DNA of 64,000 bases, from NCBI GenBank assembly GCA_963720575.1, contig CAVRGA010000002.1, positions 5,149,209 to 5,213,208 of the forward strand. Direction: 5' to 3'. The notes under the pieces are model-generated. The model was not told where the DNA came from, made no database searches, and saw nothing but the letters and a program-made list of their open reading frames with translations. The translations under genes were made by a program, and so were the position numbers. Below are positions 30,872 to 61,265 of this stretch, one piece after another. Numbering within the stretch: the stretch's first letter is position 1; the number at the start of each line of letters is the position of its first letter. Source of the DNA: an uncultured Actinomycetota bacterium. GTDB lineage: Bacteria; Actinomycetota; Actinomycetes; Streptosporangiales; Streptosporangiaceae.

Positions 30872-31065
30872 GGAGTGTCTCCTTCGGTGGGGGAAATGCA
30901 GCACCCAGGCTGCAACGGAACTGCTACTACAGCGATGCCGATCACCCCGGCGTTACTGCGCCCCATGATCGGCAACCGCGCTAGCCCTAGAGCCGCCTGC
31001 CTGTGACCTGAAGGCGTACGCTCATAGGCGTAGAACACAGTACATATCGGGGGAAGCGGCTTCAG

Positions 31066-31290
31066 ATGCCTTCTGGATCGCCGGACAGCCTGCTTGGCGC
31101 CATCGGCAGGGTGACCGTGTCCATCCCAGCGCATGGCCCTGGTGAGGTTCTCTTGCCGGTTCGGGGCGGCACTGAAGCGTTCGCTGCCTGGTCCGACGAG
31201 CCAGTCGCCAGGCACAGCCGCGTGGTTGTCGTCGAATGCCTGTCCGCACGGTCGGTTTTCGTTTCCATGCTTTCCACCCGTCCGGCTTGA
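31066..31290 (+). CDS. NfeD-like OB-fold small protein (short form), partner of the flotillin gene.
   Basis: GEVLLPVRGGTEAFAAWSDEPVARHSRVVVVEC resembles the NfeD C-terminal beta-barrel. Positioned immediately upstream of an SPFH gene. Start is uncertain. Confidence 0.3.
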   Translation: MPSGSPDSLLGAIGRVTVSIPAHGPGEVLLPVRGGTEAFAAWSDEPVARHSRVVVVECLSARSVFVSMLSTRPA

Positions 31291-31325
31291 GGGCCGGCCG
31301 GGCGCGTACTCATCGAGGAGTCGAG

Positions 31326-32672
31326 ATGATGTGGTGGCGGGTACCCGCGCCGAACGAGGCGCTGCTGATCTCCGGTTCGAAGGGGCGCAAGGACGGCTCC
31401 GAGCAGTTCCGGATCGTCACCGGTCACGGTGCCATGGTCCTGCCGATCAAGCAGAAGGCCCGGCTGCTCTCGCTCGCCCTGCGCGAGGCCGAGATCGTCG
31501 AGGACTGCATCACCCAGCAGGGAATCAAGCTCAACGTCCGGGCCGTCGCCGCTTTCAAGGTCGGCGACGACCCGGTCTCGATCGCCAACGCGGCCCGCAG
31601 GTTCCTGGCTGAGCAGGACAAGATGGAAGTGCTGGTCGGCCGGGTGTTCGCCGGGCACCTGCGGTCGATCATCGGCGGCCTGACGGTCGAGCAGATAATC
31701 CGGGAGCGCGACCGGGTCGCCCAGGAGGTCAAGGACGGCAGCCACGGCGAGATGGAGAAGCTCGGCATCGTCGTCGATGCCCTGGAGATCCAGGAAATCG
31801 AGGACGCCTCCGGTTACATCAACAATCTCGCGGCCCCGCATGCGGCGGCAGTCGCCAGCGCAGCCCGCATCGCCCGGGCCCGGGCTGATCAGGAAGCCGC
31901 TCAGCGCGAGCTTGAAGTAGCCGCGATGAAGGCTCAGTACGAGCGCGATACCGAGATCAAGAAAGCCGGCTTCCTGGCGGAGACCGAGCAGGCCAGGTCA
32001 AGGGCCGCCCAGTCCGGCCCGCTTGCCTCGGCTCAGGCGTCGCAGGAAGTCATCGAGCAGCAGACAGCGCTCGCCAGCAGGCAGGCCGACCTGGCCGCGC
32101 AGCGCCTGGAGGCAGAGGTGCGGCGGCCCGCCGACGCCGAGGCCTACCGCAAGCGCGCCATCGCCGAGGCCGACCGCGACCAGGCCAAGCTCGCCGCGGA
32201 AGCCGACGCCTATCGCAAGAGAATGCTCGCCGAGGCAGACCGCGACCAGGCCAAGCTCGCTGCCGAGGCCGAGGCTTACCGCAACACCACGATTGCCGCG
32301 GCACAGGCCACGGCCGCCAAGCTGCAGGCCGACGCGGCAGCCTACGCCGAGAGGGCGACGGCTCAAGGTGAAGCCGACGCGAACGAAGCCAGGGCCACCT
32401 CGCTCCGCGCGGGTAACCAGGAGCTCATCGCAGCCAGCCGTCTCATCGAGCAGCTGCCCGTGCTGGTTGAGGCAGCAGCGCGCGGCATCGCCGATTCCAA
32501 CCTGACTGTCCTGAATGGCGCGCAGGGCGTCAATGAGCTGCTTGCCGGCCTGGTAGGCCAGGGCCTGTCGATTTTCGAGCTGCTCAAGAAGTCGACTGCC
32601 GCAGCAGTCGGAGAACTCCCGGCCTCCGATGTGAACGGAAAGGCCGCGCCCAAGGCCACCGCTCCGCACTGA
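31326..32672 (+). CDS. Flotillin-like SPFH/band-7 protein.
   Basis: Start MMWWRVPAPNEALLISGS. SPFH core. Long Ala/Glu-rich coiled coil with repeated AEADRDQAKLAAEA (flotillin EA repeats). Confidence 0.8.
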   Translation: MMWWRVPAPNEALLISGSKGRKDGSEQFRIVTGHGAMVLPIKQKARLLSLALREAEIVEDCITQQGIKLNVRAVAAFKVGDDPVSIANAARRFLAEQDKMEVLVGRVFAGHLRSIIGGLTVEQIIRERDRVAQEVKDGSHGEMEKLGIVVDALEIQEIEDASGYINNLAAPHAAAVASAARIARARADQEAAQRELEVAAMKAQYERDTEIKKAGFLAETEQARSRAAQSGPLASAQASQEVIEQQTALASRQADLAAQRLEAEVRRPADAEAYRKRAIAEADRDQAKLAAEADAYRKRMLAEADRDQAKLAAEAEAYRNTTIAAAQATAAKLQADAAAYAERATAQGEADANEARATSLRAGNQELIAASRLIEQLPVLVEAAARGIADSNLTVLNGAQGVNELLAGLVGQGLSIFELLKKSTAAAVGELPASDVNGKAAPKATAPH

Positions 32673-32997
32673 CAAAGTGCCCAGAGCCCGGATGCTGATG
32701 ACGACCCGCCGAGATCCGCTCAGCACCACAACGTTAAAGCTGAAACCAATTTTCTTAATGAAAAATTTGCGGTGCCTGGACGTGCACTCCTGAGGCCAGT
32801 GCAGCCGGCCTGCCAGCGGAAGCCACCCGCCTGGTGCGCCTTAGTAACATCTTCCGTAATCTACTGGTTCATAGATTTTCCCGATTACAAGGTATATCGT
32901 GGGCGTAGTCGGGCGTGCTCAAGATAGCTAGAACGTCGGCTATCGCCTTGGGCATACGGATAGTTAAAGATCGGTACAGTCCTGTATGCTCCCCCTC

Positions 32998-33378
32998 ATG
33001 GGCGAAATAGAAGAAGGGCCGCCACCTGTCCTTGTGACCATCGGCGATATTTCCTGTACATCCCAGTCAGTTATCACGCCTTCAGGGAGCCACCCCATCA
33101 AGGATGTGGTGTGGTCCGTCAACGACATGACTTCCACCGTCCGGGTCATTCCGGTCTGGGCGATTATTCTGACAATCATTACTTTTTGGTTCTTTCTTAT
33201 TGGGCTACTCTTCTTGCTCGTCCGGGAGACCAGGACGACCGGGAGCGTTCAGGTGGCCGTCCAGGGCGCGAATTTCTTCCATTCGACGCAAGTTTCCGTG
33301 AGCAGCCCAGCCCAGGTGGCCGATGTCAACTCGCGGGTCGGATTCGCGCGCTCGCTGACCGCTGGCGCGACCGCCTAG
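32998..33378 (+). CDS. Small membrane protein (one TM), unknown function. First gene of the ATPase/toxin operon. GC content is atypical.
   Basis: MGEIEEGPP…VIPVWAIILTIITFWFFLIGLLFLLVRETR. Codon usage is AT-richer (att/ttt/ctt) than its neighbours. Preceded by an AT-rich leader. Confidence 0.45.
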   Translation: MGEIEEGPPPVLVTIGDISCTSQSVITPSGSHPIKDVVWSVNDMTSTVRVIPVWAIILTIITFWFFLIGLLFLLVRETRTTGSVQVAVQGANFFHSTQVSVSSPAQVADVNSRVGFARSLTAGATA

Positions 33379-33402
33379 CTGGCCGGATCTCAAGGGGGGC
33401 AC

Positions 33403-35271
33403 ATGGTGCAGGATCTTCCGGCAGAGCGGCCGGAGCCAGCAGTCGCCGCGCAGGAGATCAGCCTCGCTGAGAAGCTGTTCGTGCCGGCGGAGAGGTGGGG
33501 GTGGGAGTACGCCGAGCCCGCGAGGCTCGAAGTTCCGGCCCGGCTCCAGCAGAAGCCCGAGTGGCGCGAGCCCTCGATCACGGCTCGGCCCCCGGTGCCG
33601 CTGACTCGTTCCGCGCAGCGACCGCCGCCCCGGCTGGGCTGGCGCCTGGCGGTCTTCATTCCCGTGACGCTCATCTGCCTGCTGATCGCCGTGCATGCTG
33701 CCGGGATACTCGTCATTCCGCTAGTACTCGGCCTCATCCTGTTCGTGCCGATGGCGTCAGCGGGCACGCGGCAGCCCGCGGTTGGCCCGCATGACCTCCG
33801 CCAGGCGGAGTGGAGCAAGTATCAGCAAGAGCTCAGGCTGTGGGAAACGGCGGTCGCCCAGCACGAGCATGCCGAGGTGGCTCGCCTGGCGGGCATGCCC
33901 GTCTGGTATCCGCTCAGCACCGATGCCGCCGCCCGCCGGGTCGACATCGTGGGCGGCACCGGCGACGGGTGGGCCGCCATGCTGGCGACATTCGGCATGT
34001 CAGCGCTCGCGAACGACGACATGATGCTGCTGCTCGACTTCTCTCAGCATGACGTCGGAGGCGGCTTAGCCGAACTGGCTTCCGTGCCCGATCTGGCGGT
34101 GGAGTGGCTGCATCTCCCGGCCGATCTGGCCGCGATTGACCTGCTTGACGAGCTCGACGCCGAAGCGTGCGCCGAGACGATCGCCGAGGCGGTCGCGACG
34201 CTGCGGCCTGTGCCGGGAAACGCTGATGTGCGCGCCATGCACGCGGCGTTCCTCCGCACCGTCACCAGCAGGCTCGACGGGAGTCTCACCTTCGCCCGGA
34301 TCGCCGCCGGCCTGCGGGTCCTGCAGCGACGCTACGACGACACTGGCGAAACGACCCCGCTGGCCGCGCAGGAGCTACGGGCACTGCATGCCCAGGTCGA
34401 TACCGTCGGCGGCTCGGAACGAGCTGATGGCGAATTGTCATTCCTGTGCGAGATGCTCGAGCTACTGGCTACCGGAAGCGTTACCGGAGTCAATGACCTG
34501 CGATCCTGGCATCAGGCACAGCTGACTGTTATCGCCACGGACGATCTCAATGAGCGCAGGAAGGACCTGATCGACAGGGTGCTGCTTCAGGTGGTGCTCC
34601 AGCATCTGCGCAGGCGCCGTTTCGGCAATGGCCATGGGCTGCTCGCTATCGCCGGGGCCGACCACCTTGGCGCGGTTACGCTGGAAGCGCTGACCCGGCA
34701 CGCCAGGCTTAACGGCGCCCGCCTGATCCTCTTCTTCGAGCATCTGCGCGCCGATGCCGTTCAGATGCTCGGCGGGTCCGACAGCGCTGCCATATTGATG
34801 CGGATGGGAAACGCGCAAGAGGCAGCGGCGGCCGCCGAATTCATCGGACGGGCCCATCGTTTCGTTCAGAGCCAGCTGACCAGGCAGGTCGGCCAGACGA
34901 AGACCGTGTCAAGCGGAGTTACAGGCGGCGGACAGTCAGGGCTCAGCACGACGTCCGGTCAGAGTTCGGGACACAGCCACAGCGCTGGCGCGATATCGCG
35001 GCATTCTTCCTGGCATTCGTCAGTCACGGACTCTCGCATGCTCACCTGGAACGAAACAAAGAACTGGTCGACGGCCTCGTCGGTTACCGAAGGCGAGACG
35101 TCCCAGCGCGTCTATGAATTCGCCGTCGAGCCCACCGAAATCCAGTCGCTGCCGCTGACGGCGTTCATCCTCGTGGAGTCCGGTCACGGTGGCCGCCGCG
35201 TCACGCTCGGGGACTGTAATCCCGGGATCGTGACGCTCGACCGGGTGTCGGCCGCGTCCCGTAGCGCCTGA
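33403..35271 (+). CDS. Membrane-anchored protein (2 TM) with a degenerate P-loop NTPase-like domain, paralogous to the downstream ATPase.
   Basis: 622 aa. TM hairpin LAVFIPVTLICLLIAVHAAGILVIPLVLGLILFV. VDIVGGTGDGWAAML…DDMMLLLDFSQ lines up with AFVCGATGAGKSQTV…PWLVIEPAKS of the next gene, with the Walker A Lys replaced by Trp. Ser/Gly-rich C-terminus. Confidence 0.55.
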   Translation: MVQDLPAERPEPAVAAQEISLAEKLFVPAERWGWEYAEPARLEVPARLQQKPEWREPSITARPPVPLTRSAQRPPPRLGWRLAVFIPVTLICLLIAVHAAGILVIPLVLGLILFVPMASAGTRQPAVGPHDLRQAEWSKYQQELRLWETAVAQHEHAEVARLAGMPVWYPLSTDAAARRVDIVGGTGDGWAAMLATFGMSALANDDMMLLLDFSQHDVGGGLAELASVPDLAVEWLHLPADLAAIDLLDELDAEACAETIAEAVATLRPVPGNADVRAMHAAFLRTVTSRLDGSLTFARIAAGLRVLQRRYDDTGETTPLAAQELRALHAQVDTVGGSERADGELSFLCEMLELLATGSVTGVNDLRSWHQAQLTVIATDDLNERRKDLIDRVLLQVVLQHLRRRRFGNGHGLLAIAGADHLGAVTLEALTRHARLNGARLILFFEHLRADAVQMLGGSDSAAILMRMGNAQEAAAAAEFIGRAHRFVQSQLTRQVGQTKTVSSGVTGGGQSGLSTTSGQSSGHSHSAGAISRHSSWHSSVTDSRMLTWNETKNWSTASSVTEGETSQRVYEFAVEPTEIQSLPLTAFILVESGHGGRRVTLGDCNPGIVTLDRVSAASRSA

Positions 35272-35286
35272 CGCGGCTGGCAGCAC

Positions 35287-38205
35287 ATGCGGCAAGAGGC
35301 CGGCGATCACGCGGCGGCGCCCTGGACGAGCTACCGCTTCGTCCAGCTGCTGGCCGTACCCCGGTCAAAGCGGCCCGCGTCAGCAGCGCGGGACGCCGAG
35401 CCGGACCCGGGTTACCGTCGCCTCACTCAGCTGTTCGCGGCCCTGACATCGGCACATGCGACCTTGTCCGGTCATCGGGCTGACGGCGCCGGGGCGTTCG
35501 CCATGGCGTGGTTCCGGTCACCGGCTCAGGCGGATCACCGCGTCGTGCTCGGCGGGCAGCCCGTCCTCCCCTGGTCAGCGGCAGTATCAGCGAAGCCGGC
35601 GAAGACGCTGCGGATTCCCTACCCGCCGGGCGCCCTTGTCCGGGAGCTTCCTGCCGGCCAGCTGGGCGGCTGGCTGACTGAGTTCCCGTCATGGGTGGCG
35701 TGCACGGCCGTGCCGGACGCGCTGTGGACTAAAGATGACGGCAAGGCTCGGGACGGCTCCTTTGACGACTACGCGGCTTGCCTGTCCGAGCCGTTCGCCT
35801 GGGTCGTGCTGGCCGAGCCGCTACAGGCCGAGGAGCTCGACGAGGAGCTCACCAGCCTCGAAACGCAGATTCCCAGGATGCGGCAGCGGCAGAATTCCGA
35901 GGCCGACCGGGTGCGCCTGGAGCGTTCCGAGGCGCGATACCGGGAACTAGCCAGATCCAGGATCTACGGCACCTGGAGCGTGCGCGTGCTGGTGGGCGGC
36001 ATGAACGTCGCCCAGGCGCGCGCTACGGCGGCGTTGCTCTGCGGCGCGAGCGAGCTGGGCGGCCTGCCCTACGCGCTGACGCCTTCGGGAGGCTGCGGCT
36101 CGCAGGAGAGCCTGCTCCAGGCTTTCGCGCACCGACGGGCCGGAGATGCGCCGTTCGCGGCGAGCACCGAGATGGTCGCCGCCCTGGCACGGCCGCCCGA
36201 GAAAGAAATGCCTGGCATCAGGGTGATCACCCCGCCGACCTTCGACATCACCCCTGAGCACTCGACCGGGACCGGGTTCAGCCTCGGAACGGTGCTGGAC
36301 GAGACGCTGACGTCCGCAGGTGAGTTCCTGCTCTCCCCGGCGACGCTCAACCGGCATGCCTTCGTCTGCGGGGCTACCGGCGCAGGAAAGTCACAGACCG
36401 TGCGGTCCCTGCTTGACGCTCTGGCCACCAGCCAGCCTCCGGTGCCCTGGCTGGTGATCGAGCCCGCCAAGTCTGAATACGCCCGCATGGCAGGCCGGCT
36501 CGCGGGCCGCGGCAAGGTGACGATCATCAGGCCGGGCGACTCGACGTCGGTGCCAGGCTGTCTTAACCCGCTCGAGCCTGAGCCCGGATTCCCGATCCAA
36601 ACCCACATCGACCTGATCAGGGCGCTTTTCCTGGCTGCCTTCGAGGCGTACGAGCCGTTCCCTCAGGTACTCAGCCACGCCCTGACCCGCTGCTATCAGA
36701 ACATGGGCTGGGATCTCGCGCTGAGCGAGTCGCGCCTGCCCGGCATCACGCCCGCTTGGCCGACCCTGACCGACTTGCAGCGCGAGGCGCTCTCGGTGGT
36801 CGAGCACATCGGCTACGGCCGGGAGGTGACCGCCGACGTCAGGGGCTTCATCGACGTCCGGATCAGCAGCCTGCGACTTGGCACCCCAGGCCGGTTCTTC
36901 GAAGGCGGCCATCCGCTCGACCTGGCCAGCCTGCTGAGCAGCAACACCGTCCTGGAGCTCGAGGACATCGGCAACGACCAGGACAAGGCATTCCTCATCG
37001 GCGCCGTCCTCATTCGCGTGGCCGAGCACCTGCGCCAGCGCTGGGGCCGGTATGAGGGCGAGCTGACCCTGCGGCACGTCACCGTCGTCGAGGAAGCGCA
37101 CCGGCTGCTCAAGGTCGCTGAGCTTGGCAGCCCCGCCGCCCACGCCGTCGAGCTGTTCGCCGCGCTGATCGCCGAGATTCGCGCCTACGGCGAAGGCATC
37201 GTCGTGGCCGAGCAGATCCCCGGCAAGATAGTGACCGACGTCATCAAGAACTCAGCGCTCAAGATCGTCCATCGGCTGCCCGCTCAGGATGACCGGCTCG
37301 CCGTCGGGGCGACCATGAACCTCGACGAACGGCAGTCACAGTACGTCGTCACGCTGCCGCCAGGCCAGGCGGCGGTCTTCGCCGACGGCATGGACCATCC
37401 GGTACTCGTCGCGATGCCGTACCGGGAAGAGCAGGAAACCGCGACCGGGGCGAGCCGCGAAGTTGGCCTGGCGGGCAGGCGCGGCATGGCCTGCGGCACG
37501 CAGTGCCGGGTCCGAGCCTGCACGCTGCGCGAGATCGCCCTCGGTGAACGGGCGGCCGCCGATCCGCACGTGATCTTGTGGCTTGAGCTCCTCATCGTCG
37601 CCCACCTGGTCGGCGAGCCAGAGCCCAGGCCGGACCGCACCTGGCTGGCCGGCCTGCGGAAAGCAGCCGACCGCAGAACGCTGGAGTGCGCCGTCGCAAA
37701 CAGGATCGATACGGCGATCACGAGCCGCTATGGCGAGCTGGTCAGCTTCTACCAGCCGGAATCGCTCGCGGCCCACGTCGCCGACTGCGCCATGCGCTGG
37801 CTGGATGGCGCGGCCGGCAGCTGCGAAGGCAATGAGATCGGCTGGCAGGCCGGCCGGTACCGGTGGATCGACGTCGTCAGGTCACTGCACGACGGCACCC
37901 CGAAGGACAGGCCCCATCCGGCCACCGCGAGCTGGCGTGCCCGCGGCCTCGAGCTGCCCGGCAGCACCCAGGCCAAGCAGCTTGAGGCCTGGCGGCGCCA
38001 CCCGGATACGTGGCTGCCATCGCGGACGGTCATCGAGGGCAGGGATAGCCCGCCCGCGTACGAGCGCGCGGCCAGCCAGCTCAGCGACGCCATCGAGCCG
38101 ATCGACCGCCTCGCGCGGGCGGTCACGTTCCTGGCTACCGGCACGGACTGGCCAGAGACACGCCTGTACCCGGAGGCGTGGCGCGCTCGCCGGGAGGCGA
38201 CATGA
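35287..38205 (+). CDS. HerA/FtsK-superfamily (DUF87-like) ATPase with N- and C-terminal extension domains.
   Basis: 972 aa. Walker A AFVCGATGAGKSQTV. Walker B / HerA signature TVVEEAHRLL. Second HerA signature IVVAEQIPGKIVTDVIKNSALKIVHRLPAQDDRLAV. Cys cluster CGTQCRVRAC in the C-terminal domain. Confidence 0.75.
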   Translation: MRQEAGDHAAAPWTSYRFVQLLAVPRSKRPASAARDAEPDPGYRRLTQLFAALTSAHATLSGHRADGAGAFAMAWFRSPAQADHRVVLGGQPVLPWSAAVSAKPAKTLRIPYPPGALVRELPAGQLGGWLTEFPSWVACTAVPDALWTKDDGKARDGSFDDYAACLSEPFAWVVLAEPLQAEELDEELTSLETQIPRMRQRQNSEADRVRLERSEARYRELARSRIYGTWSVRVLVGGMNVAQARATAALLCGASELGGLPYALTPSGGCGSQESLLQAFAHRRAGDAPFAASTEMVAALARPPEKEMPGIRVITPPTFDITPEHSTGTGFSLGTVLDETLTSAGEFLLSPATLNRHAFVCGATGAGKSQTVRSLLDALATSQPPVPWLVIEPAKSEYARMAGRLAGRGKVTIIRPGDSTSVPGCLNPLEPEPGFPIQTHIDLIRALFLAAFEAYEPFPQVLSHALTRCYQNMGWDLALSESRLPGITPAWPTLTDLQREALSVVEHIGYGREVTADVRGFIDVRISSLRLGTPGRFFEGGHPLDLASLLSSNTVLELEDIGNDQDKAFLIGAVLIRVAEHLRQRWGRYEGELTLRHVTVVEEAHRLLKVAELGSPAAHAVELFAALIAEIRAYGEGIVVAEQIPGKIVTDVIKNSALKIVHRLPAQDDRLAVGATMNLDERQSQYVVTLPPGQAAVFADGMDHPVLVAMPYREEQETATGASREVGLAGRRGMACGTQCRVRACTLREIALGERAAADPHVILWLELLIVAHLVGEPEPRPDRTWLAGLRKAADRRTLECAVANRIDTAITSRYGELVSFYQPESLAAHVADCAMRWLDGAAGSCEGNEIGWQAGRYRWIDVVRSLHDGTPKDRPHPATASWRARGLELPGSTQAKQLEAWRRHPDTWLPSRTVIEGRDSPPAYERAASQLSDAIEPIDRLARAVTFLATGTDWPETRLYPEAWRARREAT

Positions 38206-53899: not shown

Positions 53900-56101
53900 T
53901 TACGGCACGACGTAGTTGACTGACGTGCCCCAGTTGGCCCTCCCGTCTCTGGTCCCGCCGCAAGTGCTCAGCGTCAGCGCGAAGGCCGCGCCGGTGCAGT
54001 TCGGGAACTGGATGTAATTGTTTGCGAAATAGATTCTGCCGGTCCCTGGGAGGAACACGCCCTCGCTGTAGTCGCCCCAGCGCGGCCGGGTACGGCCAGG
54101 GAACCCCTGGTACTCGGAGAAGCCGTCCTGCGGCGACTGGCCCAGGTCAGCGATGTTGATGACCGATCCTTGCACGCCGTTCGACAGGCTGGTAAGGCGG
54201 CCGTAGGCAGTGCTGGGGAAGAAGCCCCCGTTGTCTGCCCCGGTGGGCCCGCCGTTTCCTGACAAGGTGAACAAGACGATGGCGCGGCCGTTTCCGCCAT
54301 CCTGGCTGCGGAAGCCCTCGGCGGCCATGGCCGACATCTCCAGGTCCTCATGCTGCGGCGAGACATACGACTGGCTGGTGAGGGTGAAGACCCCGTGCCG
54401 GTCGAAGCTGTCGGTGCCGACGACCCAGTAGACGACGCCCTGGTGGGCCTCGGGGGCCGCCTCAGAGGAGAACGTCTGGCTGATGCCCGTCTCGGAGGAA
54501 GTCCACAACTGGCCCCGCGCCTGCGACGCTTGGGTGACGCCATCGCCGTTGGTGGCGATCGTGCCCTCCGGGCAGCTCGCGGGGGCCGGGTTGCCCGTGC
54601 TCAGGCCGGCCGCTCCGCATTCGTCGCCCAGCGGGATCGGGCCGGCCTTCTGCGCTGCCCGGCTTCCGTTGTCGTAGGACAGCACGTCGGAGAACAGCTG
54701 ACCGCCGAACTGGATGCCGCCGCAGCCGGCGCAGTCGTGGCTGTTCAGACCGCCCAAGCCGGTCCAGTCGAAGACGGCGAGCCGGTTGTCGCCCTGCCCG
54801 CGGAAGTCGAGCGTCGCGAGCATGAACGCGGAGCCGTCGTGACTGTTGTCGAACTGGGACGAGTCCGGCGGCTGCGCCGGAATCACCTGGATCCAGCACG
54901 TGATGCCGGGCCGCTGGGTCTGGTTATCAGAGGAGCAGGTCCCGTCTGGCGTCGGCACCAGGCCCATGTTCTCGATGGCGACATTGAAGCCACGGTTCGG
55001 GCTTCCGTCGGGCTCGGTGACCGGCTGGCCCTCCTCCATCGCCTTCTTGTCGAATGCGAACTCCTGCGCTCCGTTGAAGAATCCGCCGCCCAGGCCGGGA
55101 TTGTTCCCGTCGAGCGGGAACTCGTCGTACATCATCAGGAACGCGTCTCGCGAAGTCGCGATCTTCGCGAAGTCGTTGAGCAGGCTGGGCGAGCCCGGCT
55201 CGGCCGGGTTGTAGTTGGCGTTGAGGAAGTAGACGTTGTACGGGCCGAACGGGTTTGAGCCCACGGTCACGGCGATGGCCTCGAAGCAGCCATTGGCCAC
55301 GGCGGCGAAGCAGCCCGCGAACGGGCCGCCGGACGCCTCGGTGCTGGCAGAAGCGATCTCGGTGAAGAACCAGTGCCCGCCATGGTCGGGGTCGAATACA
55401 CAGGAGGGATCCCCGCCGGAGCTCCAGCCCCGGGCAGTGAGCCCCATCACGGTGTCCAGCGGGATCGCTCCGGACAACCGGTGCAGGGCCGCGTTGAAGA
55501 TCATGATCTCGCCGATGTTATTCGCCTCGGCGACGACTCCCTTGCCAGCGCACAGGCCCTGGTCCGGGGGCTCGATGTCGCCCTGCGGGTTGGTGGCCAG
55601 CGTTCCGCTGTCGACCGCGTTCAGGCCCTTCACGCCGACGGCACCGCCCGAGGCAGAGCTGACGTTGTCGCAGCCAGGGCCTAGCGGCTCGCAGCTCACG
55701 GCCGGGATAACGGGAGCGTCGGCACTTGCCAGCTTTCCGGCAGCGCGGGCAGCACTTGCACGCGGCAGCATGGGCAGCGTCATGGCGTGCTGCTGGTCGG
55801 CCCGGACTGACTGGCTGGCCTTAGCAGCCCGATGACCGGCTGCCAGGGCCAGCGTGGATGGCGTGCGGAAGGGGCCGGTGAGCAGGGAACAGCCCGAAGC
55901 GCAGCCGGTCGCGGCCGGGCCGGCGAAGGTTGGCGAGAACTGTCCCAGGCTTGCTGACGAGCTCGACTGCCCGGCGGAGGCACGGGACATGGCAGTCGCC
56001 GCCGCTTCACCAGGGCCAGAGGTGAGCAGCGCGACCGGAAGGGACAGCAGCGAAAGCATCGCGGCCGCCCCCAGGAAGCGTTTGTTTCTGCTGTTCGGCA
56101 T
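53900..56101 (-). CDS. Secreted protein of unknown function.
   Basis: Start MPNSRNKRFLGAAAMLSLLSLPVALLTSGPGEAAA (signal peptide). 733 aa. No confident family recognised. Confidence 0.55.
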   Translation of the reverse strand: MPNSRNKRFLGAAAMLSLLSLPVALLTSGPGEAAATAMSRASAGQSSSSASLGQFSPTFAGPAATGCASGCSLLTGPFRTPSTLALAAGHRAAKASQSVRADQQHAMTLPMLPRASAARAAGKLASADAPVIPAVSCEPLGPGCDNVSSASGGAVGVKGLNAVDSGTLATNPQGDIEPPDQGLCAGKGVVAEANNIGEIMIFNAALHRLSGAIPLDTVMGLTARGWSSGGDPSCVFDPDHGGHWFFTEIASASTEASGGPFAGCFAAVANGCFEAIAVTVGSNPFGPYNVYFLNANYNPAEPGSPSLLNDFAKIATSRDAFLMMYDEFPLDGNNPGLGGGFFNGAQEFAFDKKAMEEGQPVTEPDGSPNRGFNVAIENMGLVPTPDGTCSSDNQTQRPGITCWIQVIPAQPPDSSQFDNSHDGSAFMLATLDFRGQGDNRLAVFDWTGLGGLNSHDCAGCGGIQFGGQLFSDVLSYDNGSRAAQKAGPIPLGDECGAAGLSTGNPAPASCPEGTIATNGDGVTQASQARGQLWTSSETGISQTFSSEAAPEAHQGVVYWVVGTDSFDRHGVFTLTSQSYVSPQHEDLEMSAMAAEGFRSQDGGNGRAIVLFTLSGNGGPTGADNGGFFPSTAYGRLTSLSNGVQGSVINIADLGQSPQDGFSEYQGFPGRTRPRWGDYSEGVFLPGTGRIYFANNYIQFPNCTGAAFALTLSTCGGTRDGRANWGTSVNYVVP

Positions 56102-56403
56102 AAATCCTCCATTACGGAGCAAACGCACCCCCGGGGACTGCGATGCAGAATGCGGCTCTCCCGCACCCGGGGGCCCACGCGGGAAGGCCTAGGCAGCAGC
56201 CCGCGGCGGCCGATGCGACCGCCATGGCTGGCGCCGTTATCGTCCTGCCGGAGGAACTATCCGTCAATCCCCAAAAAGCACGCTATGGCCAGCCGGGCGC
56301 CTGCCGGCCCGGCGGTGCCGCAGTGAGCCGTCCTACGCTTGGCCAGGTCATGCCGATACTGGGGACAAGGATCACGTCCGTTCCCGTCAGGAGATGATCT
56401 GCC

Positions 56404-57759
56404 ATGAGCGTGGCCGCCGGTACCCGCGCAGTGCTTCACGACCAGGCAGCCGCAGTGCTGCGCGGCAACGACGCGGGCGACTGGACCAGGGCGGCACCTG
56501 TCCTTTATCCGCACCAGTGGAGCTGGGACAGCGCCTTCATAGCTATCGGATGGGCGCACCTGGACGTCCGGCGGGCCATGACCGAGCTCGAGCAACTCTT
56601 CACGGCGCAGTGGGCGACGGGAATGGTGCCTCATGTCGTGTTCCGGGCGGGTCCGGACCGTCCTTACTTTCCCGGGCCGGAGTGGTGGGGCACCTCCGTC
56701 TCGCCGGCGGCGCCCGCGCCTCCTGTCAAGACGACCGGGATCTGCCAGCCGCCGGTGCATGCCCTGGCCTTGCAGCGGATCTGGCAGCTCACACCGCAGG
56801 CGCGGCAGCCGGAGATCCGCGCGCGCATTCAGGCGCTGTACCCCCGGATGGTCAGCTGGCATCGCTATCTCGCCACCTACCGCGACCCCGAGGAATCCGG
56901 CCTGGTCAGCACCTATCACCCATGGGAGGGCACGGACAACTCCCCGCGCTGGGACAGCGCGCTTCAGCGCATCACGGTGGCCAAGCCCGGCCCGTACACT
57001 CGCCTGGACACCAGCGCGGTGGCCGACCCGTCGCAGCGGCCCACCAACTGGGACTATGACCGGTTCCTCTGGCTGGTCGAACAGTTGCGGAAATACCGGT
57101 ACGACGACGCCCAGATCTACCGCGAGTACCCGTTCCTGATCAAGGACGTTTTCTTCAGCGCCATCCTCGTCGCGGCCAACGCCGCGCTCCTTGACCTAGC
57201 CGAGGTGGCCGGGGCCAGCGACGACGACCGCGAGCAGCTGACCCGCTGGCTCAGCCGCGGCCGCGCCGGGCTGGCCAGCCGCTTCGACACCCAGGCCGGC
57301 CTGTGCGCCGACTACGACGTCCGCGCCGGGCAGGACATCCGGCTGCGAACGTTCGCGGGCTTCGCGCCGCTGTTCGCCCGGACCGCGGACACCGGCCAGC
57401 GCGCTGCCCAGCTGCGGCTTCTCGACTCCGACGATTTCTGCGGCCACCCGGGACTGCGCTGGCGCCTGCTGCCGAGCACCTCCCCCGCCGAGCCGGGGTT
57501 CGAGCCGGAGAACTACTGGCGCGGCCCGGTCTGGCCCATCATCAACTGGCTGCTGTGGCAGTCGCTGAGCCTGCTCGGCTACTCGGCCCGAGCGGACGAG
57601 ATCCGCAGCGACTCGCTCAGCCAGATCGCAGCCGACGGGGACTTCGGCGAGTATTTCGAGCCGTTCACCGGCAAACAGCTCGGCTCGGCGCAGCAGTCCT
57701 GGACAGCCGCCGTCACGCTGGACTGGTCGGCCTCCGGCCACAGCGGCGGAGCATGCTAG
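56404..57759 (+). CDS. GH63-like six-hairpin glycosidase (glucosyl-/mannosyl-glycerate-hydrolase-like).
   Basis: 451 aa. HQWSWDSAFIAIGW motif characteristic of the GH63/MGH family. Confidence 0.65.
   Translation: MSVAAGTRAVLHDQAAAVLRGNDAGDWTRAAPVLYPHQWSWDSAFIAIGWAHLDVRRAMTELEQLFTAQWATGMVPHVVFRAGPDRPYFPGPEWWGTSVSPAAPAPPVKTTGICQPPVHALALQRIWQLTPQARQPEIRARIQALYPRMVSWHRYLATYRDPEESGLVSTYHPWEGTDNSPRWDSALQRITVAKPGPYTRLDTSAVADPSQRPTNWDYDRFLWLVEQLRKYRYDDAQIYREYPFLIKDVFFSAILVAANAALLDLAEVAGASDDDREQLTRWLSRGRAGLASRFDTQAGLCADYDVRAGQDIRLRTFAGFAPLFARTADTGQRAAQLRLLDSDDFCGHPGLRWRLLPSTSPAEPGFEPENYWRGPVWPIINWLLWQSLSLLGYSARADEIRSDSLSQIAADGDFGEYFEPFTGKQLGSAQQSWTAAVTLDWSASGHSGGAC
57366..57406. repeat. 41-bp segment inside the GH63 gene, duplicated at 59575-59615 (1 mismatch).
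   Basis: gccgctgttcgcccggac[c/t]gcggacaccggccagcgcgctg. Both copies encode LFARTADTGQRA in their local frame. Confidence 0.8.
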
Positions 57760-57859
57760 CGCTTCACCGGCGGTACCTTGGCGGCGCGGGACATCCGAAG
57801 ATGTCAACAAGCAGTAGGTCCAGATCGACAGGCGCTAACTGGTGTGCGAAAATCGCACC

Positions 57860-58981
57860 ATGGCTGGTCGTGAAACTGTGTCAGCTGCTGACCTTGGGCG
57901 CCGCATCGCGCAGGCTCGCCAAGAAGCGGACCTGACTCAAGCTGAGCTTGGACATGTCGTGGGCTTGGATCGAACTGCCATCGCCAAGCTAGAGTCAGGA
58001 GTCCGGAAGGTCTCGGCATCTGAACTGCTGGCCATCGCGTCTGCCCTCGATCGGCCCATCGACTGGTTCGTCTTTGACTCACCGCCATCAGTTGTCAGCC
58101 GTCGATCGGATGCCCTCGCTGGTGGCCGCTCTCGTCTGCTCGACAACTGGATCGATCGCCTGGCTCGCGATGTCGGGTTCCTGGTCGAGCAGGGTGTTCT
58201 TGCAGATACGCAAGAGCGGCCCAGCCTGGAGTTGCCTTCTGACGTTGCGGGTGCAGAACTTCTTGCTGCTCAGGCCAGGGATCTCATGGCTGTATCTGAT
58301 GGTCCTGTCCTCGATCTGCAGCGTGCTTGCGAGCGAGTGGGTCTGCTGGCCTTCTCCCTTGACCTAGGTGAGACGGGCGGTGATGCGGCATACGTCGAGG
58401 TCGGAAGCATAGGCATTGCGTTGGTGAATGGCCGCATAGATCCCGGCCGACGTCGGTTCAACCTTGCGCATGAACTCGGCCACCACCTGTTCGGGGACGC
58501 GTACGCACCGGAGATCACGATTAGTGGAACCGACGACATGGAACGGTTGATCAATGCCTTCGCGATTCATCTGATCTTGCCTCGCGGGTCTGTCACTAGC
58601 GTATGGCGGGCGTTGGCAGACCAGGACGCTCGGCTAGCCGCAGTCGCAATCTCGGTTCGATTCCGCGCAAGCTGGACTGCCACCTGTAGCCAGCTTTGCA
58701 ATCTAGACCTCATCGATACTCCGCAACGCCAGCAGCTGACCAATGCACCCCCAAACGCGGCAGATTTCGTGGCCCTTGGCGAGCGCTGGGAAGCCGAACT
58801 CGAGGCGCCTACAGTCCCGCCGCAATATGGTGTGCGTGTGATGAGCGCTTATCAGGCTGGCCGGCTATCGGCATCACGAACAGTAGAGCTGCTGTGGGGA
58901 ACCGTGTCGATCGAGGAACTACCGGAACAACGCGTGCTACCTTTGGAGTCGCTCCGACGGGAATTCGACCACATGTCATGA
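57860..58981 (+). CDS. XRE-family HTH fused to an ImmA/IrrE-family zinc metallopeptidase domain.
   Basis: HTH LTQAELGHVVGLDRTAIAKLESG. HEXXH LAHELGHHLFGD. Confidence 0.75.
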   Translation: MAGRETVSAADLGRRIAQARQEADLTQAELGHVVGLDRTAIAKLESGVRKVSASELLAIASALDRPIDWFVFDSPPSVVSRRSDALAGGRSRLLDNWIDRLARDVGFLVEQGVLADTQERPSLELPSDVAGAELLAAQARDLMAVSDGPVLDLQRACERVGLLAFSLDLGETGGDAAYVEVGSIGIALVNGRIDPGRRRFNLAHELGHHLFGDAYAPEITISGTDDMERLINAFAIHLILPRGSVTSVWRALADQDARLAAVAISVRFRASWTATCSQLCNLDLIDTPQRQQLTNAPPNAADFVALGERWEAELEAPTVPPQYGVRVMSAYQAGRLSASRTVELLWGTVSIEELPEQRVLPLESLRREFDHMS

Positions 58982-59511
58982 CGACTCTGGTGTTCGACAA
59001 CACGCCGTTGAGCCACTTCGCTCGCGCTAGCGCTCTTCCAATATTAGAGAGCATCTCAGCCGGCTTCCGATGCGTCTCTCCCGCTGAGGTAATGACAGAA
59101 ATAATCCGCGGCGCTACAAAGTATCCGGCCATTGCTGCGGCGGTTAGCTTGCCATGGGTGGATATCGTCGAGTTGACTGAGGTTGAGGAGATCGTTGCCT
59201 TCGCACGGTACAAGTCTGAACTCGGCGGTGGCCTGGAACGGAATAATGGTGAGGCCGCAGCACTCGCGTGGGCGAGTGTGCACGGAGGAACCGTAGTCAT
59301 CGACGAGCGGGCGGGTACACGGGCGGCTCGTCGCGATCATATTGAGGTCCACGGCACGCTGTGGCTCATTACCAATGCCATTCGCGGCAGTAAGCTCCAA
59401 GAAGCCGACGCGATCAAAATGATTGACCAGCTTGCCGCCACGGACATGGCTTTGCCTACAGACGGTGCAGGTTTCATTGCATGGGCTCATGAGCAGGGAC
59501 TGCTCCCGTAG
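58978..59511 (+). CDS. PIN-like (DUF3368-type) predicted nuclease; candidate toxin/effector partner of the XRE-ImmA protein.
   Basis: ATGA overlap with the upstream stop. MTTLVFDNTPLSHFARA…, GEAAALAWASVHGGTVVIDERAGTRAARRDHIEVHGTLWLI matches the DUF3368 PIN_3 pattern (GEAEAIALA…DD..AR..A…G…GT). Confidence 0.5.
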   Translation: MTTLVFDNTPLSHFARASALPILESISAGFRCVSPAEVMTEIIRGATKYPAIAAAVSLPWVDIVELTEVEEIVAFARYKSELGGGLERNNGEAAALAWASVHGGTVVIDERAGTRAARRDHIEVHGTLWLITNAIRGSKLQEADAIKMIDQLAATDMALPTDGAGFIAWAHEQGLLP

Positions 59512-59574
59512 CACGCAAGGTCTCCTGCCCGGTCTGGAGTTGAGCCGGCGGACCCGCGCTCAGACGTCTGCGCG

Positions 59575-59615
59575 GCCGCTGTTCGCCCGGACTGCGGACA
59601 CCGGCCAGCGCGCTG
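59575..59615. repeat. Second copy of the 41-bp GH63 segment; part of a short GH63-paralog remnant reading …RPLFARTADTGQRAGLARHSLS.
   Basis: See 57366-57406. Copy 2 lies immediately downstream of the XRE-ImmA/PIN module. Confidence 0.8.
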
Positions 59616-59698
59616 GTCTTGCCCGCCATTCGCTGTCATAGTCGAATGACGGGCGCGAACGACGTGACGCCGATGCGGAGCACCACCTGGGAGGACCG

Positions 59699-60022
59699 AT
59701 GAAGCACGGGATCATTCGCATGGCGGCCGCCGCCGCGTCTCTTGGCCTTGCCGCCGGGGTCACCCTGACCGGGGCGGGCAGCGCCCAGGCTGTAGCGTCC
59801 AACTGGTTATGCGACACGCTGTCGCCCCCGTCCGGCGGAACGGTGTTCGGGGGTCACTGCCAGGGCCTCGGGGGCGGCACCGGCTGGTTCCAGGTATATA
59901 TCGGCGGAGGCGCGTACATGATTGTCTACAGGTGCACCAACTTCGTGTCCACGCTGGTGAATGATCCTCCCACTCCGCAGTACTACAACGTCACCGGCAC
60001 CGGCTGCATCCCGGCTTCGTAG
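59699..60022 (+). CDS. Small secreted Cys-containing protein (4 Cys), unknown function.
   Basis: MKHGIIRMAAAAASLGLAAGVTLTGAGSAQA (signal peptide). 107 aa. Confidence 0.5.
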   Translation: MKHGIIRMAAAAASLGLAAGVTLTGAGSAQAVASNWLCDTLSPPSGGTVFGGHCQGLGGGTGWFQVYIGGGAYMIVYRCTNFVSTLVNDPPTPQYYNVTGTGCIPAS

Positions 60023-60097
60023 ACACCGGCGGCCATACCCCGGATCAATCCGCGGCAAAGGCGGCTCTACGGCCATCGCGCCCCTTCCGGACGTTAC

Positions 60098-60535
60098 GGT
60101 GACCCCGGTCGCTTATTTCCCGGAGAAGTACTTCCCGGAGAACCTCGTCGTGCGCGCCGACGGCTCGGTGCTGATCACCGCCGTGCTGCAGAAGGAGCTG
60201 TGGTACGTTCCGCAGTCGACAACGGCGATGACTTCTGCATCGATCAGGACGCCGGCTTCGCGTACGTCACCCGGCATCGCGTCAGTACCCTCGACCGCGT
60301 GCCGCTCGCTCCGCGCCACGGCAGCGAGGTGCGCCACATCGCAGGCGACCCGTTCGACCCAGTTATCGTCGGGCCGTCAAGCGCCTGCTGGGGACGCGAG
60401 CCCGGCGACGAAGGTAAGGTCATGTACGTGACCACGGACGGCGGCACCACCGCACCGCCCGAAGGCGTGACCCGCAACGCCGCCCTCCTGCGCGTCGAAC
60501 TCGCCCCGGACCCCGGCGCGCTCAGACGTCGGTGA
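60098..60535 (+). CDS. Hypothetical protein; the frame appears broken near 60215.
   Basis: Frame A …VTPVAYFPEKYFPENLVVRADGSVLITAVLQKELWYVP. Frame B …AVDNGDDFCIDQDAGFAYVTRH…KVMYVTTDGGTTAPPEG…. Confidence 0.25.
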   Translation, partial: GDPGRLFPGEVLPGEPRRARRRLGADHRRAAEGAVVRSAVDNGDDFCIDQDAGFAYVTRHRVSTLDRVPLAPRHGSEVRHIAGDPFDPVIVGPSSACWGREPGDEGKVMYVTTDGGTTAPPEGVTRNAALLRVELAPDPGALRRR

Positions 60536-60579
60536 GGCCTCACTACGACAGGCTTGCCATCTGAGCGGCCATCGGCCGG

Positions 60580-60645
60580 GCCTGCCGCGGCGCAGTGCTC
60601 GCCCGGCGCCCCGCCGCCCAGGACGATCACGTCATAGCTGCTCAT
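60580..60645 (-). pseudogene. Remnant (about 22 aa) of an FAD/NAD(P)-binding disulfide-oxidoreductase N-terminus.
   Basis: MSSYDVIVLGGGAPGEHCAAAG then nonsense. ATGA overlap with the upstream VOC gene stop. Confidence 0.3.
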
Positions 60646-61265
60646 GTCGGCAGTTCCGTCCCGGCGTGCTCCGCCACCATGTAGGCGGCGTACCAGCCGG
60701 GCCAGTCCGGGTCTGCGGCGCCGATCCGCTTCTCGTGCTCGCCGTGCGCGGCCTCCGCGCGCCGCATCGCGCCTGCCAGGTCCGCCGCAGACGCGAATGC
60801 CGTCTCGGCAGCGTCGACCCGGCCGGGCAGCCGCGTCGTGACTTCCTGGAGCAGCCAGCCGTTGCCGTCCGGGTCGCTGAACGTGGCGAAGGAGCTGTAG
60901 CTGGCATCATCTGGCGCGGGCCCGCTCACGCGGCCGCTCGTCCCGTCAGCCTGGAACTGAGCACCCGGCGTGCCAGCGTGGAACACCTCGCTCACGTCGG
61001 CACCGCGCCGGGCCAGCTCGCCGCGCACCGCAGCGACGTCGGAGACGATCAGGTACAGGCCCTGGGCCGAGCCGGGCGCAGCTGACGTAATGTTCGTGCC
61101 GAACTGGACCGAGCACCCCGAGCCCGGTGGGGTGAACTGAACGACCCGGAAGCCGTTATCGAAGGAGAAGTCGGCGTCGAGCCGCCACCCGAGCTTCCCG
61201 TAGAACTCCTTCGCCCGGTCAGCATCCGACACCGGTATGACGGCAACCTCAAACCTCATGTCCAT
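60642..61265 (-). CDS. VOC/glyoxalase-family protein with C-terminal extension.
   Basis: MDMRFEVAVIPVSDADRAKEFYGKLGWRLDADF…DPDGNGWLLQE. Conserved C-terminal PDWPGWYAAYMVAEHAG tail. Confidence 0.7.
   Translation of the reverse strand: MDMRFEVAVIPVSDADRAKEFYGKLGWRLDADFSFDNGFRVVQFTPPGSGCSVQFGTNITSAAPGSAQGLYLIVSDVAAVRGELARRGADVSEVFHAGTPGAQFQADGTSGRVSGPAPDDASYSSFATFSDPDGNGWLLQEVTTRLPGRVDAAETAFASAADLAGAMRRAEAAHGEHEKRIGAADPDWPGWYAAYMVAEHAGTELPT

Follow-up and report, generated by a model that had tools for sequence, protein, structure and literature searches.

Introduction

The pairing of HTH-COG2856 proteins with PIN proteins of the COG2405 type has been described before (Makarova 2009, PMC2701414; Matelska 2017, PMC5499597), the latter study listing 2mdt as the structure for COG2405. 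In these three-component toxin-antitoxin (TA) systems, an HTH-DUF955 protein (COG2856, M78) is combined with a PIN-like protein (COG2405/DUF3368, DUF4411 or others). RmrA-type antitoxins, as found in RosmerTA, have been reported together with anti-phage activity (Millman 2022; Ernits 2023, PMC10440598), and in NetFlax the RmrA-type antitoxin is a hub that pairs with PIN-like toxins too. RmrT toxins are heterogeneous by definition. To our knowledge, the HTH-COG2856 plus PIN class has been predicted but not characterised biochemically.

The locus reported here lies in a 64-kb stretch of DNA from an uncultured actinomycete, the whole of which will be referred to as the window. It shares with the three-component class a fused XRE HTH/Zn-peptidase gene immediately followed by a PIN-like gene in the same orientation, the mobility and patchy distribution of the module, and a PIN fold closest to 2mdt. 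However, its PIN subfamily is too divergent for the Pfam DUF3368 threshold, and the PIN protein carries ~40 C-terminal residues more than minimal PINs. The likeness to RosmerTA resides in the architecture of the presumed antitoxin, HTH plus ImmA-type peptidase, whereas the RmrT toxins validated so far have no relation to PIN, one of them depolarising the membrane. VapBC is resembled in the PIN fold with D/E/D acidic residues (fold matches to VapC4, VapC15, VapC43 and others), in the order of the genes with that of the presumed antitoxin first, in their overlap and in a palindromic candidate operator suggesting autoregulation; nevertheless, the presumed antitoxin is a 373-aa HTH-metallopeptidase instead of a small RHH, AbrB or Phd protein, and sequence identity to VapC proteins is just 10-23%. 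PDC-S70 has been described as a PIN nuclease (PMC12988326). Its HMM matches the PIN protein of the window, but PDC-S70 is a mostly archaeal, single-gene candidate, whereas the PIN gene here is always paired with an HTH-M78 gene. We consider it probable, though by no means assured, that the locus represents an acquired HTH-XRE/M78 plus PIN TA operon accompanied by a short repeat copy left as a footprint of illegitimate recombination.

The HTH-M78 and PIN-Fold Proteins

The cassette comprises the following features:
57825..59511: cassette, putative self-contained mobile operon
57825..57853, + strand: predicted promoter, TCGACA, 17-nt spacer, (TG)GAAAAT (consensus scan and six-copy alignment)
57844..57858, no strand assigned: perfect palindrome GTGCGAAAATCGCAC overlying the -10 box and stopping 1 nt short of the ATG
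57860..58981, + strand: gene (ORF A) for a 373-aa HTH_XRE and Peptidase_M78 (ImmA/IrrE, COG2856) fusion (Pfam, PADLOC RmrA)
58978..59511, + strand: gene (ORF B) for a 177-aa PIN-fold protein (COG2405/DUF3368-like; PADLOC PDC-S70)

The two genes overlap by ATGA (58978-58981), and the coordinates of this coupled pair in the initial annotation were correct. The fusion of HTH_XRE and ImmA/IrrE domains recognised there in ORF A was confirmed by Pfam, with matches to HTH_3 (1.7e-13) and HTH_31 (5.8e-10) at residues 11-70 and to Peptidase_M78 (PF06114, 2.1e-12, above its cut-off). The motif HELGH occupies residues 204-208, of which H204, E205 and H208 are invariant even in a homolog with 33% identity. 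Thirteen PADLOC RmrA models, for which no curated cut-off is given, matched the protein, the best with 1.7e-19 over residues 9-291. ORF A showed a dN/dS of 0.08-0.10. The ORF A product is presumed to be an RmrA-like antitoxin or repressor.

For ORF B, a PIN fold was predicted with high confidence, the nearest structures being 2mdt and VapC proteins; a sequence-profile search of solved structures with the protein returned nothing. Acidic residues are conserved in the protein, 40 sequences showing no variation at D7 (end of strand 1), E41, E92, D109 and E110. The fourth canonical acidic position, past the strand at 123-125, reads H-G-T and is apparently non-acidic, as placed by secondary-structure register and not by superposition. 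The label "DUF3368-like" held only in part. The closest solved fold, 2mdt, is the COG2405/DUF3368 representative, but direct scans gave no Pfam or NCBIfam hit, PF11848 (DUF3368) not appearing even at E up to 10, and the best homolog (P0110) reached 17.4 bits against a gathering cut-off of 27.3. Precomputed tables assign PF11848 to the identical protein and its homologs. Considering the sub-threshold PF11848 score together with the closest structure, ORF B encodes a distant relative of DUF3368 and not a formal member. No PADLOC RmrT model matched the protein, only the PDC-S70 HMM, which covered residues 1-157 with 2.7e-14. The ORF B product is presumed to be a nuclease and represents the candidate toxin.

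Boundaries and Distribution of the Cassette

Homology among the cassette copies begins exactly at the predicted promoter, as seen from blastn boundaries at 57825-57827 and the alignment of six copies, and ends exactly at the PIN stop codon. The palindrome GTGCGAAAATCGCAC is invariant in this alignment; it was found once in each of the 10 cassette-bearing loci and in 0 of 165 other loci, and within the window exclusively at the cassette's own promoter. It is presumed to be a candidate operator for the XRE domain. With the palindrome on the -10 box ending 1 nt from the ATG, a leaderless mRNA is implied.

In all contexts examined (including L081-L089, L170 and L175), the PIN gene was immediately preceded by the HTH-M78 gene. 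The cassette is located elsewhere in relatives, for instance behind a Band_7 gene 93% identical to window positions 31013-32665, and further copies are found among IS21, rve and integrase genes. Its GC3 of ~0.60 compares to 0.83-0.89 in host genes, and dN/dS values of 0.03-0.10 demonstrate strong purifying selection. To judge from these sequence features, the cassette appears to be horizontally acquired. The cassette subfamily was absent from the phage collection searched and had one distant match in the plasmid collection, so that a defence role would follow by analogy alone.

Proposed Function of the Cassette

By analogy to ImmA/ImmR, IrrE/DdrO and RosmerTA, and from its anatomy, the cassette may be regarded as a type II ("three-component") TA operon with a RosmerTA-like antitoxin. 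A toxin-antitoxin or abortive-infection function is the usual reading of such an architecture and is not new. The XRE domain would bind the palindrome on its own -10 box and thereby repress the leaderless bicistronic mRNA, and the HTH-M78 protein would in addition neutralise the PIN nuclease. Activation or redirection of the Zn-peptidase might then be set off by, for instance, DNA damage or phage infection; with repression and neutralisation lost, the PIN RNase would arrest growth.

Alternatively, the HTH-M78 protein might be a stress or mobile-element regulator of other genes, of the ImmA/ImmR or IrrE/DdrO type, with the PIN protein as a regulated accessory nuclease and not a toxin checked by direct binding. 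This possibility was raised for Xre-COG2856 proteins by Makarova 2009 (PMC2701414), and M78 proteins of known mechanism cleave XRE repressors (PMC12828697). We nevertheless judge it unlikely, as the cassette moves between unrelated contexts in the form of a minimal two-gene operon, delimited by its own -35 box and its stop codon, its genes overlap in the order antitoxin then toxin, and the putative operator occurs in the window nowhere but at its own promoter. Furthermore, in RosmerTA an RmrA deletion could not be transformed, possibly through toxicity.

As the architecture has been described since 2009 and 2017 and overlaps RosmerTA, the cassette belongs to a known kind and will not surprise specialists. 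What it adds is a divergent actinomycete subfamily of the HTH-M78 plus PIN TA class, for which a profile search yielded ~1,300 clusters at 50% identity. The clean boundaries, from the -35 box through the candidate operator to the stop codon, make the unit easy to clone and test. Since we know of no member of the PIN-paired branch whose trigger or peptidase role has been established, the cassette offers a reasonable experimental entry point.

A 41-nt Direct Repeat on Both Sides of the Cassette

The regions next to the cassette contain the following features:
56404..57759, + strand: intact GH63-like (MGH1-like) glycoside hydrolase (GH) gene (Pfam PF22422, E 1.3e-102)
57366..57406, + strand: repeat copy 1 (DR1), lying within the coding sequence of the GH gene and encoding A-PLFARTADTGQRA
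57760..57824, no strand assigned: 65-nt gap between GH stop codon and cassette, GC 0.615
59512..59574, no strand assigned: 63-nt orphan spacer from PIN stop codon to copy 2, GC 0.71, outside the conserved cassette
59575..59615, + strand: repeat copy 2 (DR2), isolated 41-nt GH fragment with sharp edges, 41/41 to the GH allele of L090 and present in L170
59628..59649, + strand: motif ATTCGCTGTCATAGTCGAATGA, conserved ahead of the downstream gene (aligned to L171, L173 and L174)
59699..60022, + strand: gene for a 107-aa protein, right-hand neighbour (ORF list; four homologs found)

The left-hand neighbour had been labelled GH63; its match to MGH1-like_GH is very strong, but Glyco_hydro_63 stayed below the Pfam threshold. 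Its composition is host-like (GC3 0.89), and over 40 contigs carry genes that share 78-91% nucleotide identity with this gene. This identity is even along the gene, the 5' and 3' parts being alike and the 3' GC host-like, and revealed no mosaic breakpoint in the resident gene, including at copy 1. In surroundings that otherwise lack synteny, the GH gene stands out as an island of gene size with 78-91% identity.

The 41-bp recurrence with one mismatch pointed out in the initial annotation was verified at 57366-57406 and 59575-59615 (40/41, C to T at repeat position 19). The copies have the same orientation and are 2209 nt apart; being direct repeats, they cannot pair within one transcript. Allowing up to three mismatches, the window contains no third copy, and 100 dinucleotide-preserving shuffles of it produced not a single match. 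Among 175 loci the repeat was not part of a longer or widespread one: the homologous 41-mer was detected in 36 related loci, solely at the position equivalent to copy 1 inside GH genes. A dispersed repeat family of REP or MITE type was rejected on this distribution and the two copies in 64 kb. Copy 2 is identical (41/41) to a natural GH allele, that of L090, from which the resident copy 1 differs at one site; at the C/T site copy 2 has the same state as the three closest foreign GH alleles. An artefact of one assembler is not the source of the repeat, as a second assembly, L170, carries copy 2: a Logan contig of run ERR10755946, derived from the same strain and the sole other contig found by exact-protein look-up, is 100% identical to window positions 57402-60753.

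The cassette had been described as bounded by the repeat. Both copies are real, but they do not strictly bound it: copy 1 is situated inside the intact GH gene 459 nt upstream of the promoter, the cassette starting 419 nt beyond its end, and copy 2 is 63 nt past the PIN stop codon. A target-site duplication of a transposon was therefore rejected, since the repeats fail to abut the cassette and the GH coding sequence continues without interruption for 353 nt past copy 1. The short ORF 59423-59641 does encode the GH peptide ...PLFARTADTGQRA..., as stated earlier; this is a trivial outcome of the DNA identity, and nothing suggests that the ORF is a gene.

Blastn and blastn-short detected no residual GH similarity beside copy 2, and by eye the codons flanking it showed 2/9 and 2/8 identities to GH. 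Neither the 63-nt spacer nor the 65-nt gap gave a significant blastn-short match in the 175 loci or elsewhere in the window. The spacer shares exact 15-nt and 14-nt stretches with other window sites (p ~0.03 versus random 63-mers); a patchwork origin on this basis was discarded, the p value being judged too weak to use.

On the right-hand side, blastn homology to relatives of the downstream gene starts at 59628, and native DNA begins at ~59613-59628. These relatives have only that gene and ~70 nt upstream in common with the window. The 107-aa product has a signal-peptide-like N-terminus by eye and gave no Pfam hit. Copy 2 ends at most 13 nt from the start of homology, and CTG(G) is common to its right edge and the conserved native sequence. 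By sequence comparison, copy 2 is placed where apparently orphan DNA meets the native, predicted promoter region of the downstream gene.

Origin of the Second Repeat Copy

Copy 2 probably lacks any function of its own and is likely to be a trace of illegitimate recombination, left at the right-hand joint of acquired or orphan DNA. It had been taken for the scar of a second GH63 copy, which is possible. Its complete identity to the L090 allele, one site off the resident gene, agrees with this proposal; the missing flanking GH similarity, the even identity along the resident gene and the fact that neither a second GH copy nor a pre-insertion state was found among the 175 loci do not. Likewise, of 160 loci obtained by a GH protein search of genome and metagenome contigs, none had either flank in common with the window or with each other, on DNA or protein level, and no empty site was recovered. 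Two explanations account for the same data. We somewhat favour copy 2 as a relic: it would be the last remnant of a GH allele replaced when GH-plus-cassette DNA recombined in, by homology-facilitated illegitimate recombination followed by deletion. The cost of this model is at least two events, and no degraded GH similarity extends past the 41 nt. The argument from the single base is weak, because a T to C mutation of copy 1 after local duplication is equally parsimonious.

The other explanation, doubtful on balance but worth serious attention, is a one-step patch for which the resident GH gene, at a distance of 2.2 kb, would have served as template, either as the cassette inserted or in a separate event, with no second GH copy ever present. 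SPDIR patches of 3 to ~100 bp arise from intragenomic single-stranded DNA annealing at microhomologies, and copy 2 resembles them in being a short ectopic patch of suitable size, with sharp edges devoid of flanking GH similarity and the CTG(G) microhomology at the junction. A single event would make both edges, the source is close by on the same strand, and the exact matches of the adjacent spacer add a weak hint (p ~0.03). However, SPDIR is known from Acinetobacter laboratory selection, with a frequency of ~1e-13 in the wild type, and is not known to be documented in actinomycetes, whereas the patch here would be deduced from the end state without an ancestral sequence; the C/T difference, moreover, requires an extra mutation, and copy 2 agrees at this site with all three of the closest foreign alleles. 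Far less probable is a Campbell-type insertion with the 41-mers as attL and attR, in which a 2.2-kb unit (GH 3' end plus cassette) integrated into a GH gene at the 41-nt stretch of identity and supplied a replacement 3' end, in the manner of e14 and phage 21 at icd and of actinomycete integrative elements at tRNA genes. The direct repeats have an att-like length and, at 2209 nt apart, would in principle permit excision of the unit by recombination between them, and the gene is intact across copy 1. But no integrase, transposase or tRNA gene is present in or near the unit, the sequence past copy 2 is unrelated to GH and is not the displaced 3' end, the GH 3' part matches the 5' part in identity and the host in GC with no breakpoint at copy 1, and the other cassette copies stop at the stop codon and lack the 41-mer; the model is largely refuted. 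We give still less credence to a functional copy 2, that is, a cis-regulatory or RNA element (decoy or antisense target) through which GH expression would be coupled to the downstream gene or the cassette. The nearly perfect copy (40/41) and its location directly upstream of the conserved promoter motif would fit, but no convergent gene is placed for an antisense RNA, the local fold is ordinary (z = -0.63), Rfam gave no matches, and the 41-mer is missing upstream of the downstream gene's relatives and downstream of the other cassette copies.

The interest of copy 2 is confined to its being a possible natural trace of illegitimate recombination in gene acquisition; as a single instance without ancestral state, it cannot carry a general claim. 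A wider reading, that the repeat pair marks recombinase-independent chromosomal entry of small TA or defence cassettes, either as a natural SPDIR-type patch or by homology-facilitated capture anchored on a conserved, often exchanged GH gene, seems improbable to us. If true, an uncultured actinomycete would here provide a rare natural record of a mechanism so far known only under laboratory selection, and this would tie in with the GH gene being an island of 78-91% identity.

The 41-nt Direct Repeat

The direct repeat that the initial annotation had placed inside the glycoside hydrolase (GH) gene (57366-57406, copy 1) and behind the two-gene cassette (59575-59615, copy 2) was borne out. The copies are identical at 40 of 41 positions, they are the only two in the 64-kb window when up to 3 mismatches are allowed, and 100 shuffles preserving dinucleotide composition produced no match. 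Copy 2 was also present in a contig generated by another assembler (L170, Logan, run ERR10755946), which is 100% identical to window 57402-60753. This contig starts 5 nt short of the end of copy 1; since the longest exact run common to both copies is 22 nt, co-occurring GH alleles in the sample are more likely to have caused the contig break than the repeat. The intervening DNA comprises the final 353 nt of the GH gene, a gap of 65 nt, a pair of overlapping genes and a 63-nt spacer. The genes concerned are as follows.

56404-57759, + strand: intact glycoside hydrolase gene holding copy 1 (Pfam MGH1-like_GH, E = 1.3e-102; Glyco_hydro_63 match sub-threshold)
57860-58981: upstream cassette gene (Pfam HTH_3, 1.7e-13; Peptidase_M78, 2.1e-12)
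58978-59511: PIN-fold gene, sharing an ATGA overlap with the upstream gene at 58978-58981

Genes with 78-91% nucleotide identity to the GH gene occur in more than 40 contigs from genomes and metagenomes (L001-L006, L010, L090-L124), the homology (window 56381-57762) always beginning ~20 nt 5′ of the ATG and ending with the stop codon. The flanks of these loci (6-8 kb) matched neither the window nor, where compared (L005 against 16 other loci), one another. Synteny limited to the size of one gene at 90% identity is unusual, a hint that the GH gene may often be exchanged or relocated. Upstream and divergent lies a gene (53900-56128, - strand) whose product of 742 aa matches no Pfam family and has an N-terminus resembling a signal peptide.

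The Two-Gene Cassette

The coordinates agree with the ATGA-coupled gene pair described initially, and its reading as an HTH_XRE-ImmA/IrrE regulator plus PIN protein is supported by the HTH_3, Peptidase_M78 and VapC/PIN fold matches, although it is not novel. The HExxH motif of the upstream protein is invariant, including in a homolog at 33% identity, and 13 PADLOC models of RmrA, the RosmerTA antitoxin, match this protein (best 1.7e-19). The PIN protein gave no Pfam or NCBIfam match at E values up to 10; it is matched at 2.7e-14 by the PADLOC candidate PDC-S70. An AlphaFold2 model based on 40 homologs was confident (pLDDT 93, pTM 0.88), and Foldseek searches with it returned VapC/PIN structures with a probability of 1.00. 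Residues D7, E41, E92, D109 and E110 are invariant among homologs. By secondary-structure register, D7, E41 and D109 would fall on three of the acidic positions canonical for PIN domains, and the fourth such position would read H-G-T. The earlier label "DUF3368-like" holds in part: PF11848 is assigned to the identical protein and to its homologs in precomputed tables, but when scanned directly the highest-scoring homolog reached 17.4 bits, short of the 27.3-bit cut-off, and we therefore regard the protein as DUF3368-like and not as a formal member.

The only predicted cassette promoter (57825-57853) consists of TCGACA, a 17-nt spacer and TG-GAAAAT, with the -35 box forming the left edge of the cassette. 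A perfect palindrome, GTGCGAAAATCGCAC (57844-57858), spans the -10 box and ends 1 nt short of the ATG. All cassette copies preserve it unchanged, and it occurs once per locus in 10 out of 10 cassette loci, once in the window and in 0 of 165 other loci. As only 7 nt separate the end of the -10 box from the A of the ATG, the arrangement suggests a leaderless, autorepressed mRNA.

Several precedents exist. Xre-COG2856 fusions encoded in the same operons as PIN and RelE toxins have been described, and a three-component toxin-antitoxin system was proposed (Makarova et al. 2009, PMC2701414); COG2405/DUF3368 is one of the PIN-like families listed as sharing transcripts with HTH and DUF955 (Matelska et al. 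2017, PMC5499597). RosmerTA is an anti-phage toxin-antitoxin system whose antitoxin is a Zn-peptidase, the ImmA antitoxin hub of NetFlax has PIN-like toxins among its partners, and PDC-S70 is an unvalidated defence candidate with a PIN domain (PMC12988326). On these grounds the cassette belongs to a known kind, its mechanism being proposed by analogy; toxin, antitoxin and defence functions are putative.

The Cassette as a Mobile Unit

Cassette copies on other contigs show 77-80% nucleotide identity, and the alignment is limited to window 57825-57827 through 59501-59511. One copy, in a related 531-kb contig (L081, 4970-8534), lies directly 3′ of a Band_7/SPFH gene with 93% nucleotide identity to window 31013-32665; further copies sit amid IS21, rve and integrase genes, and a distant one is located on a Tsukamurella plasmid. 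The cassette is thus a minimal mobile unit. Profile searches of 1.84 billion cluster representatives yielded 1,278 relatives with E≤1e-3, and tightening the limit to E≤1e-30 left 83; the phage collection gave no match.

GC content in the window drops from ~0.70 to 0.56-0.61 over 57750-59550. Every cassette copy (L081-L089, L175 and the window) has a GC content of 0.59-0.62, with hosts at 0.66-0.72, and GC3 is 0.60-0.62 in the cassette versus 0.83-0.89 in neighbouring genes. Either movement outpaces compositional adjustment to the host, or the low GC is itself maintained. Selection acts on both genes: compared with two copies, the upstream gene has a dN/dS of 0.08-0.10 and the PIN gene one of 0.03-0.05, dS being saturated.

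In window 31013-38205, the Band_7/SPFH gene (31236-32672) is followed instead by two orphan ORFs (130 and 622 aa, no Pfam match) and a gene for a 972-aa HerA/FtsK-like ATPase. The site may be a variable hot spot, open to different occupants that perhaps serve in defence.

Origin of Copy 2

Relatives of the downstream gene, which encodes a 107-aa protein (59699-60022), share homology over the gene and its upstream region only rightwards of ~59613-59628, which places copy 2 on the joint between orphan and native DNA. Copy 2 stands alone as a patch with sharply defined edges, its right edge having CTG(G) in common with the native sequence. In the adjacent spacer, 15-nt and 14-nt matches to other parts of the window are weakly unusual (p ~0.03).

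A longer or widespread repeat family was rejected, related 41-mers in 175 fetched loci being confined to the homologous position within GH genes. Contiguous GH coding sequence follows copy 1, which argues against a target-site duplication. An att pair was likewise rejected: the window is without tRNA genes, Pfam scans revealed neither integrase nor transposase in neighbouring genes, no displaced GH 3′ end follows copy 2, and GH identity to ten alleles has no breakpoint at copy 1. No RNA element was evident for copy 2.

The copies differ by one synonymous change (ACC/ACT). Copy 2 carries ACT, as do the three closest GH alleles (L090, L092, L005), and L090 matches it at 41 of 41 positions, which mildly favours descent of copy 2 from a different GH allele. 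Homology-facilitated illegitimate recombination, for example, might have imported a GH gene together with the cassette, and a deletion would then have followed. Equally parsimonious is a local duplication followed by a T to C mutation in the resident copy 1. A one-step templated patch also fits, as SPDIR patches are 3 to ~100 bp long and intragenomic single-stranded DNA is a possible source. The proposed scar of a second GH copy is plausible as one candidate origin; no empty site or closer strain was found among the GH and downstream-gene loci searched.

The downstream protein has four homologs only among 5.8 billion clusters; the family (107-123 aa) has a signal-peptide-like N-terminus and no assigned function. 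The motif ATYCGCTGTCATAGTCGAAKGA (59628-59649; ~8544-8565 in the fetched locus L171, also in L173 and L174) is invariant ~50 nt 5′ of this gene in four otherwise unrelated contexts and is probably its promoter or operator.
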